Below are positions 999 through 56,900 of a stretch of DNA of 64,000 nucleotides, in pieces. The notes beneath the pieces are model-generated. The model ran no database searches. It was not told the DNA's origin and saw only the letters and a program-made list of their open reading frames with translations. A program made the position numbers and the translations under genes. How positions within the stretch are numbered: the stretch's first letter is position 1; each line of letters opens with the position of its first letter. The stretch comes from Eledone cirrhosa (taxonomy: Eukaryota): the NCBI GenBank assembly GCA_964016885.1, contig OZ024741.1, forward strand, positions 80,972,001-81,036,000, written 5' to 3'.

Positions 999-1222
999 TA
1001 GAAGTAGTGACACAACAGTTAGTTCACCATACTGAGAACAATTGTTTCACCTTAGCGGATCTTCATCTCGTACCCCATGCATTATATGTGTGAAGGTCCG
1101 TTAAGATGAAACAATTGTTCTCGGTATGGTGAACTAACTGTTTTGTTAGTACTTCTACCAAACTCGTCCCATGGACTGAGTGCTCTACCACTACGGATAT
1201 TACGTTCCAGTGTTCTACCTCT
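999..1222. mobile_element. Short hairpin element in (TA)n with degenerate hammerhead cores (PLE pLTR-like)
   Basis: About 67 bp imperfect arms at 999-1065 and 1091-1157; minus arm reads cgag-ATGAAGA-tccgctaaggt-GAAA-caattg-TT-ctc. Confidence 0.7.
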
Positions 1223-1328
1223 ATATAATATATATATATATATATATATATATATATATATATATATATATATATATATATATATATATATATATATATA
1301 TATATATATATATATATATGTATGTATA

Positions 1329-50900: not shown

Positions 50901-53900
50901 AAAGTGAAGAAAATGAGTGACACATGTTCAACATAGTAGCCGACACTAAAGCAACAACAAACACATGCTTGCTTCAGTATTGAATGTCCCCCCCCCCCCT
51001 TTCTCTCCTGCACGAAAGGAGGTACATCTAAAACAAGTAAGCGACACACATTCAATGTTCAATGAACATAAAGCAACAACACACGCCTGCATTAATATCA
51101 AAATCCCTTCTATTAGCTGCAGCACATTTTGTCATATATTCTTTATATCTCTTCTGTGTGTATATATATTTCATATCGACTTCATATTTAGCCCGTGAAC
51201 AAAAATGACCTCTATATCATTTGAGGGCATCATGTTTGTATTTTAACGAATGCTAAGGGAAGTAACGCAGAGTAAGTCATAGTTGTAGTTGGTGGTGGCA
51301 GTGACACTGCTGACATCTCACAGTTACCATGACTACCAACATTATTTTTCCAAACTTAAGAAAGCTTCTAGATACAAGCTTGAAAGCAGAGAGGGGTTCC
51401 AGTTAAATCCTGTCAACAAAATCTCCATATGGTTTAACCCTTTAGCATTTACATTACTTTATATTTACTATTGTATTTTCATGGTAAACACTTTATCTCA
51501 CATATCGGATCTATGAAATTTTGATATCATTTATTTTGAGAACAATACCTTAACATAAGTATGAGCAGCTGATTATGGCTGGTTTGAACTGAAAGAGATG
51601 AGAGAATTCTGGCCGGATTAAATGCTATAGGGTTAAATACACAAATCTCTGATATCCAAATGGCTAAACAATAGCAGAAGGGCAGCCAGGAATCATGACC
51701 TTGGTGCAGCCCAACCCCCCTAGAGTGGAAGAAGTTAACAGCCAAAATACCTTCTTCTCTGAAGAACTTCTACTGTGCAGCTCTTCTGAGAGTTTCTTAC
51801 CAGTATCTTCTTCATAACTTTCTTGCATGTGTGTGTATACATGCTACATCTTCGTATATAGCCTTGTGTATGTATCAGCCTATCATTAAATTTTGGGTTC
51901 TTTATTTGATTTATGGAAACACTACTAAAAATAACACTTGTGAAACCTGTAATATTTTTTGCATATTCATTTCCATTAGTTTTTGGTTGCTGTTTCCGAA
52001 AAATAACAAAATTAATGCAGTGTGTCCTCATTCAATGAAATTTGTCTTGACTTAGATACATTATTAACAGAAAAATAATAGTGACATTGGAAGCTGCAAG
52101 TAAAAAAATGCTAGCAAAGAACAGAACTTCATTTGGAAGAAAGTCTCATGACGCTATGGCAATGCAGCTAAAGAGAGAGAATGAAAGTGAAGAGCAGCAA
52201 CAAGCAAGACTCCCAAAACAAAGAAAAACAGCAAAATATAGGCAAAATGAACCAGAAAAACAAAGATCATAACGGCTTGTTGATGATAGGACAAGGAAAG
52301 CAAACATTCATCAAGAGGAATTAAATGTACAAAATTACAGCACAAAACAGAGAGGATGAATCAGATGCACAAAGATCAAAGCTTCAACAACGAAGAATAA
52401 CAAGTTCACAGAATAGACAGGATGAATCAGAGGAACAAAGATCAAAAAGGTTTGCTGAAGATAAGACAATGAAAGCAACTAATTATCAAGAGGAATCAGA
52501 TGTACAAAAATCAAGAGGAGAGAAATAGAGCAGTTCAAAGGCAGCATGAAGAAACTGAAGCTCAAACAACTCAAAGGCAATGTGAACAGAGAGCAAGACA
52601 GAAGATTTACAATTTACAAAGGTTACCAAGTGGAACTTTGCTGCTTTTAGTTACAATCGACATCAAGACAATGCCTCAAAACCTTTAATTCGAATTTCCT
52701 CAATGAACAAAATTTGTCCAAATTGTGGTGCTAAAAAATGGAATGGTGAGTCAACTGGATTGTACTGTTTAAATCAAAAGATTAAGCTTAAACTATTACC
52801 TGAACCACATGAACCCTTGAGGGGACTGGTGATTGGTACAGCTACTAAATCAAGACACATTCTTGAAAATAACCAGAAGTACAAATGCATTCCAAAAGAC
52901 ATCATTTGGGGCAAGTACCATCAATGAAGGTGGCTTTACACCCACTTTCAAGATCTAAGGCCATGTGTACCATAGAATTGGACTGATTCAGCCACTTTTA
53001 GAAGAAGAACCAAAATATTTACAACTATTTTTCATCAGTTATGTGAAAACCGAAGCACAGACAAAATATGAAAGGAATAAAGAAACAAAGTATGAAATCA
53101 TATTGAAACAATGTTACATACAAGAAACAGATGATGATGATGATGAAAGAAACAAAGTATGAAATCATATTGAAACAATATGTTACATACAAGAAACAAC
53201 TATATATATAAATATATATATATAGGCACATGGCTTAGTGGTTAGAGCATTGGCCTTGCAATCGAAAGGTTGTGAGTTCAATTCTCAGACCGGGTGATGT
53301 GTTGTTTCCTTGAGCAAGACACATTATTTCACATTGCTCCAGTTTACTCAGCTGTAGAAATGAGATGATAGGGACAGGGATCCATATCATTCCACTGCAA
53401 AGTGGTCGTGGAGGTGCCACGGCAAAAAAACCACCCAGCACTCACTGTAAATGAGGTTGGTGTTAGGAAGGGCATCCAGCTGTAGAAATCAAGCCAGAAT
53501 CAGTTCCTGTCCCACCCTTGCAAGCAAGGAAAAGCGGACGTAAAATGAAATGATAAAAATGATGATATATATATATACACACACACAAATTATTTTATTA
53601 GTTAGAGCCATTTTTGGATTTAGTCTATCATTTTGATCCCAGTACTTATGATTTTTAAGCCTGGCCCTTATTTTATTTATCTCTATTTGCTGAGCAGCTA
53701 AATAACAAGACATAAATACACACAGACATATATATATTAGGCTGGACAGAAAGTTCTTGTCGCTTCTCAAATTGTTATTGCCTTTGGCATTTTTTTAACA
53801 TTAGGAAAACAATTGCCATCCTTTGCGATTACCATCTGCCATTGTTTAGGAAGGCACATGATTCCATCTCTGTAGAATTCTTCCAGCTTCAATGCAAAAA

Positions 53901-56900
53901 ATTCTGGCAGCCACTAATTTAACTGGTTTTTATTGGCGAAGGTCTTTTACTGATTGGCATTGCTCATTGAGAGAAAAAAATGATAGTCTGTAGGAGTGAG
54001 GCCAGGTGAATATGGTGGGTGGGGCAGAACCTCCTAACCTAACTCCAGCAGCTTCTCATGGGTCATCCTTGATGTAAGTGACTGAGCGTTATCATGAAGG
54101 CCCTGGTGTGGTCGCACCTGTGTGATTTTTGCCACTAATCTGTCAAGTTGTTGGTAATAGACGTCAGAGGTTATACTGGTGCTCGGTGGGAGCAGCTCGT
54201 AGTGGATAACACCTTTCTAGTCCCACCAGACGCTCAGTAGGGTCTTGCAAGGGTGGAGACCAGCCATTATTTGCTGTTGTGGTGCACTGTCTTTCTCAAC
54301 CCATGATCGCTTGAACTTGATATTAATGTGGAGACACCATATTTATCATCAGTGAAAACAGAACGTAACCAGTTGGTTGTGCGATGGTAGGATAGCAGAG
54401 ATACCACAGCTGCTGCCTGATATTCATGATTACAGTTAGTCAGATTGTGAGGCCCCCATTGCTCCAGCTTGGACACCTTCCCAATTGCAAGCAAGTGATT
54501 GAGGATAATTGTTTCCAATGCCCCAAGCACTTCGGAAAGTTGATTCGATGTCAGGCATGGGTACCAGCTCACATAGTTGCTTGTTATTGAAGTCAGACGG
54601 ATGTCCTATGCAAGGTCGATTTTCAAGGTTATAACCACCAGAACGGAAATGTGCGAACCAGTCTCTGGCACTGTGTTCAGATGTGGCAAGTGACACAAAT
54701 GCATTGTTAATGTGACGACTCGATGCTGCTACACAAATAAACATAGATCCACGCTGCTTACCCTTTGATGGTATAACAGAAAATGAAAAATACACATATG
54801 CAACCATCAACATTTCCAGTAAACTCAACCAAAATACCTCCTTTTGAAAAATAGCAGGAACTCTCCATTCAAATCAATATATATATATATATCATCATTT
54901 AATGTATGCTTTTCCATGCTGGCATGGTCTAAAATCAGCCTTGAGCTCAGAGGCTAATCAGGCCAGTGCTAACCTCGGTTTCCATGGCATGAAGCAATTG
55001 AGAGCATAAGATTCTTCTCTGGACAGGATGCCAGTTCATTGCAAGGTTAAACCCCCAGCTGGTACTCATTTTCAATTGAGTACACTGGGGCAACATGAAA
55101 TGAAGTATTTTGCTCAGTCCAGAAATCGAACCCATGACATTATAATTGTAAGTCCAACACCCTTACCACTAGGCCATGCGCCCCCCACTATGCTGGCTTG
55201 GGTTAATATATAAATAAAGACACACATACATAGCTGATAGGCTTTCACCCAGTTTCTGTCTATCGGCTTTCTCTCACAGGATACTGGTCAACCTATAGAA
55301 GACACTTGCTCAAAATGCCATACAATGGGATTGAACTCAAAACCACATAGCTATAGAAACTGATAACAAACCTGCAAAACAAGCTAAGTGATCCATTTTG
55401 TGTTCTATTCGGTTAACTTTGTATTCTGCAAGGTATTTAAAACCACTTTTGGATGTCTGCAACAATGTTGCTTCAATATGCTATTCAAAGAATAAAAGAA
55501 AAGAAATTTATTTTTATTATAAAAGACATACATATATAACATCATCCTGTTCCTATTGAAACACATGTAAGACAAATTAAATAGCTTAAATATTTTCATT
55601 TTCCTTGTCTATCCACTTGTACAAACACTATATATATATATATATATAGAGTATCCCCAAAAATGTATACACACTGTATATATATATATAAAAGCAGATT
55701 TGTGGTTTACTGAGGAAGGTACTAATATTAGCACTCAATGCTATAGTGAATGTATGTATTAAGAACAAAATGAAGTTTCACATTTAGGTCTTTATTGATT
55801 ATGCTCAGTTATGACTGTTTCACAAAAGGGTGGCTTAGGATCCACATTAATTTTATAGACCCAACTCCAGCCCCAATTTGCTCATCAGACTTGTTAATCG
55901 AGCAAAACCCATCTTGTGAAACGGCTGTAACTGAGCATAATCAATAAAAACCTAAATGTGAAACCTCATTTTGTTAATATATATATATGTATACACACAC
56001 ACACACACACATACATATAAAACTATAAACACATTTTTTGATTAACTGTTTCACCCCCATATTTTTAAGGAAAGATAGAAGATACTATTTTCAGATAGCA
56101 TTGAAAATAATAAAGTATTTGGAAGGTTTTAGTAGTATAACTAACTTTCTCTTTATTTAGCTGGTGTTTAGAATATAAAGGTTCTTACACCCTTTGCTGG
56201 ATAGTACATTTCAACTGTGCATTACCACTCCCTCCCCTGTCAAGACAGCAAAAGCATTGCTGCAAACAGCCAATTCCACCTTATGAGGCAATCTCTACAT
56301 CCTTGGCTGGGTGGTACCTCTCAGCTACAACACATGGACAAAATGATGAAAGAATTGCTGCAGAGAAGAGCCAGTGATACCTGCTACACCGGCCATTCCA
56401 CCATGTGAGGCTCCTTCCCCAGGTGGGACACCCTTGTTCTGATCTGGAATTTATCTCCATGTCCTACACCCATGCAAAAATATACACCATATCTAACACC
56501 TTTGATATTAACCCATCAAAAAACACCCTGGCTCTACAAAACAAAACCACACAATTCAATATAAGAAGTTTTTCTTAAGTTACATTATAAATACTATCTT
56601 AATAATGATATAATTAATAATTCTAATAAATCCTTCTAAATTCTTTACTAATTCAAATACAATGTATTTCTTTGGTAGGGTATTGGACAAAATGTTTTGT
56701 GGTATTTTGTAACATTTTATGTTCTGAGTTCAAATCGCGCCGAGGTTAACATTGCATTTCATCTTTCTGGGTTCGATAAAATAAAGTACCAGTTAAATAC
56801 AGGGATTGATATAATCAACATTCCTCTTCTCCCAAATTGCTGGCCTTGTGCCAATGTTAGAAATGTTAGAATATGGTGTATTTCATTATTAGGAATATGG

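Follow-up and report, generated by a model that had tools for sequence, protein, structure and literature searches.

The question raised by this stretch of the Eledone cirrhosa genome (assembly GCA_964016885.1, contig OZ024741.1, positions 80,972,001 to 81,036,000 of the forward strand; 64,000 nucleotides, hereafter the window, numbered from its first base) is what kind of element leaves short hammerhead ribozyme sequences in its (TA)n tracts, and what the TGAGTRC motif recurring in them represents. The window is AT-rich and abundant in microsatellites, and a preliminary description had proposed a miniature non-autonomous class mobilized by Penelope-like elements (PLEs), with the motif shared by otherwise unrelated families. 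Our analysis indicates that TGAGTRC forms the 3' strand of what is predicted to be a bulged hairpin in the RNA, and that this hairpin, in many cases twinned, sits between the hammerhead and the start codon of Hydra-type PLEs bearing open reading frames (ORFs). The reading that we consider probable is a joint one, in which the short elements are heavily 5'-truncated insertions of PLE ends and the hairpin would position the start of reverse transcription, through protein binding and priming close by. A new non-autonomous class is not established, PLE ends being the best reading of these loci.

The bulged hairpin and its twin

The motif strings quoted in the preliminary description were located where it had placed them, but the bare heptamer is barely enriched (32 occurrences of TGAGYRC in the window vs 21.8 +/- 3.9 expected) and is not present at the loci starting at 1329, 25445 and 39195; what the element families have in common is instead a bulged hairpin. 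A generalized descriptor of this hairpin gave seven window matches, all within elements and 42-61 nucleotides (nt) before TATATA, compared with 1.38 matches in the control (100 shuffles), or 0.05 when a TA run was required, a control that is optimistic because the descriptor was written after the elements had been seen. The stems of the window families are compensated (GCTC/GAGC, ACTC/GAGT and GTTC/GAAC), GCTC/GAGC being found among the short elements only at 25445, and the first lower stem pair is G-C in eight and A-U in seven of 15 hand-picked sequences. A model seeded solely from 10 Hydra hairpins gave 16 matches when run on the window, with six PLE sites among the top eight.

For the Hydra-type set, the best 79 of 505 confirmed stretches were taken, all on metagenome contigs; 58 of these 79 loci contain hammerheads (70 in total) that were grouped into 39 families. 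Counting on the best copy of each family, a hairpin of the GCTC...YY GAGCAC type occurs in 29/39 families at 44-75 nt past the cleavage site, and a second in 21/39 at 113-138 nt, against 86/7800 in the shuffled control. Among the 10 families without the hairpin, four have at most 51 nt of contig left, three enter TA first, one has a doubtful hammerhead and two show decayed look-alikes by eye. Inside ORFs the hairpin has no match on either strand in 91,197 coding nt (44 loci with an ORF of at least 600 amino acids (aa)). Two hairpins are present in 19 of the 23 loci having at least 150 nt upstream of the ATG; across the 23 two-hairpin loci the spacing is 54-82 nt, and the second hairpin lies 19-46 nt before the ATG.

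Forty-eight hairpins were compared in anchored columns rather than by MAFFT alignment. The pair closing the 2-nt bulge is C-G in 32, T-A in 15 and unpaired in one, and the next upper pair is formed in 34/48, each reached in 0/5000 shuffles. A model-fitted alignment of 67 distinct matches, which leans to the model, contains 49 double-change cells vs 16.7 expected. Published consensus ends also show the GCTC/GAGC hairpin on inspection by eye, once each in Hydra-2_Amil and Hydra-2_Ajap and twice in Hydra-1_Ajap, and in the Craig et al. (2021) supplement five motif words fall at 20 places, namely two Hydra ends, one look-alike hairpin in the Naiad file and, at the rest, no hairpin by eye.

No hairpin match was found in the Neptune/Nematis-type loci L080, L081, L082 and L084, which lie on short contigs; L080 and L081 contain hammerheads, followed by TA after 45 and 52 nt, respectively, and have no visible pseudo-long terminal repeat (pLTR) upstream. 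L080-L084 are animal-type PLE ORFs that probably entered bacterial metagenome-assembled genomes, where they sit on short contigs, as contamination from the host. When five genomes hosting these loci were searched by pattern, chance matches ran into the thousands, and no relatives of either PLE alignment were found among viral contigs.

Anatomy of the short elements

All nine loci of the preliminary description were found approximately where it had placed them, each adjoining a TA run, in agreement with its proposed (TA)n preference; positions no more than 12 nt from a TA run make up 12% of the window. Overlooked earlier were two further copies of the 38823 family (1820-1935 and 39342-39400) and hairpin remnants at 15347 and 37688. 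The elements are:

1001-1221, both strands: inverted PLE-end pair in (TA)n; minus arm with a near-complete hammerhead (core 1066 to NUH 1037, C3 changed)
1091-1157, plus: plus arm of the 1001-1221 pair, carrying a 66-nt tail
1162-1184, plus: tail hairpin, ACTC/GAGT stem, 6 nt past the TA where the short arm stops
1329-1745, both strands: inverted pair; intact-looking hammerhead on the minus strand, 1463-1391
1632-1693, plus: plus arm of the 1329-1745 pair, beginning at the first base past the cleavage site; other copies extend to about 1800
1697-1723, plus: tail hairpin, GTTC/GAAC variant, with a private change at 1717 in the window copy
1820-1935, minus: second copy of the 38823 family; tail hairpin 1892-1867
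7933-8069, both strands: fold-back pair fused through helix I; intact-looking hammerhead, plus, 8022-8060; tail hairpin, minus, 7994-7974
25445-26551, both strands: inverted arms 25445-25522 and 26387-26464; about 865 nt between the arms without PLE coding similarity
26467-26514, plus: GCTC/GAGC hairpin of the 25445 element
26561-26880, plus: single-arm PLE end; canonical minimal hammerhead 26678-26722; hairpin 26783-26824; TA run 61 nt past GAGTGC
38823-39013, both strands: fold-back pair fused in helix II; hammerhead 3' half in each arm; tail hairpin, minus, 38895-38870
39178-39322, minus: doubtful member; core words between TA runs, without fold or hairpin
39342-39400, minus: 38823-family hammerhead copy, older and decayed
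43085-43300, both strands: inverted pair of the 7940 family; cores 43211 (minus) and 43235 (plus); tail hairpin, minus, 43145-43125
55693-55980, both strands: inverted pair; core 55888 (minus), without NUH triplet; decayed tail hairpin, minus, 55751-55731

The two isolated hairpin remnants resemble the 38823 tail (15338-15372 and 37680-37710, both minus), with no hammerhead match nearby.

Arms were aligned pairwise, and inverted repeats were sought by masked self-BLAST, which missed the 999 pair later recovered by direct arm alignment. One rule is common to them: one arm ends at TA and enters (TA)n, and the partner arm extends about 54-90 nt further before (TA)n, the motif sitting in this one-sided extension (tail) of the longer arm. 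The inverted arms previously described at 999, 1329, 25445, 38823, 43091 and 55690 were recovered, each with a 5'-truncated partner and a tail at one end only, as also in the fused pair at 7940, but 26560 proved to be single-armed. All seven arm junctions lie in or at most 8 nt from the hammerhead (in the core at 999, 6-8 nt before it at 43091 and 25445, in helix II at 38823 and 55690, and at the base after the cleavage site at 1329 and possibly likewise at 7940), a clustering that is partly ascertainment because the earlier reader chose the loci for their hammerheads. At 38823 and 7940 the arms are joined via the ribozyme's own helices, and since the 7940 arms are fused through helix I, the motif there is on the strand opposite the intact core. 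The discrete ends that had been expected are found on one side only: 3' ends are discrete, with a long end common to the 1820 and 38823 copies, whereas 5' ends vary between arms and copies, and among the few copies compared no common fixed 5' end was seen.

An arm start at the cleavage site was considered as proof of in vivo cutting; it is exact at 1329 and possible at 7940 (2/7 pairs), where helix I microhomology explains it equally well, and in vivo cutting was not concluded. The 1329-1390 and 1632-1693 arms are 100% identical over 62 nt, although the window copy has many differences from other copies. Within its non-coding interior, the 25445 element contains a 130-nt direct duplication (26041-26311, 81% alike).

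The hammerhead cores reported at these loci fared unevenly. Using a type I descriptor (core, helices I-III and NUH) with 30 dinucleotide shuffles of the window as the control, the strict form gave three matches, all inside claimed loci (8022+, 26678+ and 1463-), vs 0.13 per shuffled window, and allowing one core mismatch gave seven, six of them inside claimed loci, vs 1.67. At most other loci the hammerhead is decayed, partial or cut: C3 is altered at 999-1222 and U4 in the 25445 and 26387 copies, helix III is decayed at 43091, the NUH triplet is missing from both arms at 55690, only the 3' half (GAAA, helix III, GUC and the helix I strand) remains at 38823, and 39195-39320 has core words without fold or motif. 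A search of the window with Rfam returned nothing at the gathering score, and at E-values up to 10 the best 150 of 348 rows were all microsatellite look-alikes. A minimal type I hammerhead with a palindromic helix III near the 3' end is represented in the loci by these three strict and three further relaxed matches, and not at 39195 and 55690; it is similar to the palindromic helix III of PLE-type hammerheads (PMC4209133). The window hammerheads that look intact do so by fold, and their self-cleavage is only predicted.

Region 1334-1990 was compared with 14,696 contigs (X1, possibly the source sample), 23,074 reads (X8), and 103 and 24 contigs from two other organisms, summed contig depth not being taken as copy number. 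Several copies were seen of both the 1329 and 1820 families, in agreement with the multi-copy status proposed for the elements. Of the plus-mate reads of X8, 1364/1373 have G at 1717, which converts the motif-less 1329 tail into this hairpin, its stem being GTTC/GAAC; likewise, the upper stem of the 1820 copy is restored by C at 1877 (8413/8753 reads). Loose ends in TA were seen in 17 contigs at 1693 and in 89 contigs and 2557 reads before 1805. A 10-bp G-U-rich stem without the motif can be drawn at 1745-1805, at hairpin-2 distance in the 1329-family copies. Opposite-strand joints near 1905-1937, which hammerhead self-complementarity may have created as artefacts, were set aside.

The PLE coding remnants reported in the window were verified at 3-809 and 32337-33805, the second with its own ends:

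31872-34170, minus: decayed Hydra-type PLE; ORF remnant 33805-32337; 3' pLTR 31949-31872 ending near the short end
34023-34170, plus: inverted copy of the 31872-34170 PLE; hairpin 34122-34142; ends just before the next hairpin
3-809: 5'-inverted Neptune/Nematis-type PLE remnant; reverse transcriptase (RT) thumb, plus, 420-809; linker and GIY-YIG, minus, 401-3; abuts a TA run

The 32337-33805 remnant scores 137 bits with the Hydra-type profile vs 6 with the other profile, and its closest proteins carry RWK, DKT and CxCX5C; in the copy itself a decayed linker is readable and the RWK/DKT region is deleted. Two decayed hairpins lie upstream of its ORF, near 33911 and 33859, and the 31872-34170 remnant displays both types of end (both partly by eye). 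The element may once have carried a set of three hairpins at intervals of about 52-56 nt (33842-33967, minus), the first deleted between two AGC repeats.

The layout of the short elements matches published PLE insertions, which bears out the PLE origin that had been proposed for them, but not the miniature non-autonomous class: 5' ends are variable, the same layout surrounds the ORF remnant at 31872-34170, and hammerheads occur in most ORF-bearing Hydra-type loci. The case that the preliminary description had itself named as contrary to its proposal, that of truncated PLE ends, is the best fit. Its motif is indeed common to unrelated families, not as a badge of mini-elements but as a structured pLTR signal of the PLEs themselves.

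Insertion ends and the proposed choice of start site

Eighteen hammerhead copies run into at least five TA units. Nine of them end 34-49 nt past one hairpin and nine end before any hairpin, seven of the latter 40-66 nt after GAAA, and none passes both hairpins. When junctions were mapped on a sister copy, 6/10 fell 6-8 nt before the GCTC of hairpin 1 or 2, and in the window the short arms at 999, 1329, 25445, 38823, 43091 and 55690 end at TA 5-8 nt before the hairpin. The 54-82 nt spacing of the twin hairpins agrees with most window tail lengths. A fixed distance of 21 nt from TA to the motif was dropped, since what stays constant is the distance from TA to the base of the hairpin, 5-8 nt. For the twin hairpins, the analysis shows where they lie, that they are doubled, that their pairs covary and how far they stand from the insertion ends.

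We propose that the PLE RT-endonuclease, possibly dimeric, would bind each hairpin and that PLE protein would nick both strands of the (TA)n target, each nicked 3' end then pairing with UA 5-8 nt upstream of a hairpin and priming one cDNA. The cDNA started at hairpin 2 would copy hairpin 1, which would be the tail, and the cDNA started at hairpin 1 would have none; both would often halt in or beside the hammerhead and then join head to head, sometimes via its helices. This scheme is consistent with the Poseidon data of PMC11167929, in which both strands are extended, the RNA required reaches 3' of the starts and a dimer is predicted. Since a daughter would always lack the hairpin at which its synthesis began, a continued supply of tailed copies would fall to tandem or partial-tandem loci alone: a solo tailed copy could yield only tail-less daughters, and sources would be tandem or partial-tandem, with or without an ORF. 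Rather speculative, and falling a little short of an even chance in our estimation, are a dimer with one hairpin per subunit, a telomerase-like template boundary, lower stems serving as a family address code, and a tandem state needed by PLEs and retrozyme parasites alike.

Several observations weigh against this account. Related loci are not independent in the Hydra-type counts, and the 48 compared hairpins, which come from ORF-bearing loci, were all themselves picked as GCTC/GAGC; ACTC/GAGT was not seen in those loci, the ACTC/GAGT and GTTC/GAAC families could be tied to no ORF, and by DNA comparison no window element matched ORF-bearing Hydra-type loci, the ORF link existing only for 31872-34170. 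Beyond the second upper pair the stem is poorly paired (93/5000 and 875/5000), with at least three upper pairs in only 20/49, and the Hydra-only model gave weak E-values in the window (0.019-3.1) and missed 999, 1329, 25445, 26560 and 55690. The remaining mapped junctions (4/10) lie elsewhere, at 12, 35, 35 and 107 nt, the last three probably reflecting mismapping and an AT run inside the element, and at 7940 the short arm ends about 17 nt before its hairpin. Copies of the 1329 family extend to about 1800, about 55 nt beyond the expected long end, without a second motif, and no hairpin 2 or ORF was found at the loose ends among those listed. The motif is also not PLE-wide, since by eye there is no GAGCAC in the printed Poseidon template of PMC11167929.

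The alternative that survives best is that some families are true non-autonomous, retrozyme-like parasites of PLEs, whose masters would be short ORF-less tandem units with the same hairpins, the solo copies of the window being descended from them. Neither tblastn nor profile searches found PLE coding similarity inside or beside the short elements, the non-coding stretch upstream of the hammerhead reaches about 865 nt at 25445 and about 170 nt at 1329 (the latter shared by other copies), the 1820/38823 family has three copies in 64 kb plus the deepest contig and read pile, and retrozymes have been proposed as PLE derivatives (10.64898/2026.07.22.740005). Against this, no head-to-tail tandem unit with hammerheads was found within the window, 5' ends vary between arms and copies, the ORF remnant is flanked by the same layout, and Hydra-type 3' untranslated regions can reach several hundred bases. 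We regard such parasites as unlikely, though mutually compatible with the hairpin model.

The motif might instead be read on DNA, the GIY-YIG endonuclease recognizing a duplex or cDNA hairpin and cutting at TA a fixed distance away, so that the ends would be cleavage products. GIY-YIG homing endonucleases are known to cut away from their binding site, which fits this possibility, as do the lower stem and flanking letters, which are nearly invariant in sequence, and the G-U vs A-C counts, which favour neither strand. In addition, PMC11167929 cites a report that the endonuclease requires the tail to recognize Drosophila Penelope DNA, and tails were earlier attributed to endonuclease resolution (PMC8557442). 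The covarying upper pairs and variable loop length, however, suit a single-stranded fold better than a duplex site, and Poseidon tail boundaries are RT start sites on RNA in vitro (PMC11167929). We consider a DNA site improbable. Less probable again is that the hairpins serve transcription or translation (as promoter part, in RNA end formation or in ribosome entry before the ATG), the insertion ends being next to them only because RT stalls or primes at any AT-rich spot beside a stable stem. In favour, hairpin 2 lies just before the ATG, TA steps are frequent upstream of the hairpins at many distances and promoters reside in pLTRs (PMC11167929); against it, the stems are weak, and each of the two hairpins has insertion ends 5' of it at equal distance, with no copy passing both.

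Returning to the paired hairpin as a signal of PLE ends, it is a real cis-element that appears to be undescribed and whose role in start-site choice is predicted from sequence. PLE RTs are the sister group of telomerase, and internal start-site choice and the origin of tails are standing questions (PMC8557442, PMC11167929). A twin motif of 25-35 nt at a fixed distance from both ends is amenable to direct mutational test; it offers a sequence-independent marker for annotating PLE ends and a rule for which copies can still propagate, and could serve as a minimal cis-signal when RNA-templated insertions are made into TA repeats.

Neighbouring repeats and comparison with known systems

Other repeats surround these elements. 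A near-intact non-LTR retrotransposon lies at 9675-14757 (minus), with an ORF1-like frame at 13504-14757 followed by two long frames, of 579 and 555 aa, that encode APE endonuclease, RT and zf-RVT. Weak profile matches to PLE thumb and endonuclease at 22769-22876 and 4844-5002 (both minus; E 0.003 and 0.005) are possibly older remnants. At 8415-8494, two perfectly matched 29-nt arms form a hairpin with (TA)n at its centre and a second TA run behind it, with no hammerhead seen, and decayed local inverted repeats occur at 46748-47001 (with minus-strand CTGAAGA...GAAA words) and 25280-25397. A SINE-like dispersed family is abundant and often clustered (3862-4078, 15430-15645, 22917-23885 and 41950-42780 among others), and a second dispersed family lies at about 46115-47706, 53224-53577 and 60253-60882.

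A description of twin hairpins was not found in the literature searched, which excludes subscription papers and Repbase reports, and the word "hairpin" is absent from the main text of PMC8557442, PMC3846280 and PMC4209133. Tails in PMC3846280 and PMC8557442 are 30-40 nt long with no hairpin mentioned, compared with about 54-90 nt and a conserved hairpin in the window. In PAc, the green anole Poseidon (Frangieh et al., 2024; PMC11167929), two internal RT starts likewise bound the tail, both target strands are extended, initiation occurs at a stem-loop, the required RNA and binding region extend 3' of the starts, and a dimer is predicted; PAc differs in belonging to another clade and starting inside the ORF, and no repeated motif is described for it. 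Animal non-LTR retrozymes (Cervera and de la Pena, 2020, PMC7229834; Li, Clavereau and Pollet, 2026, preprint 10.64898/2026.07.22.740005) are similarly short and non-coding with type I hammerheads, a proposed PLE dependence and existing monomers, but are defined by circular RNA and by head-to-tail tandem units, an arrangement not seen in the window, whose elements are solo or head-to-head with variable 5' ends. The Hydra clade (Craig et al., 2021) shares the (TA)n targets and canonical hammerheads, and the best relatives of the 32337-33805 remnant show the marks of that clade (RWK, DKT, CxCX5C linker, C-terminal GIY-YIG and a short ORF); most short elements, in contrast, use ACTC/GAGT or GTTC/GAAC stems without a link to a Hydra ORF, in the same geometry. 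The closest likeness is to endonuclease-bearing (EN+) PLE insertions (Arkhipova et al., 2013, PMC3846280; Craig et al., 2021, PMC8557442), with their inverted 5'-truncated copy, one-sided tail, pLTR hammerhead, (TA)n targeting (PMC8557442) and no discernible target duplication in microsatellites, and by architecture the window elements fit best among truncated EN+ PLE insertions.

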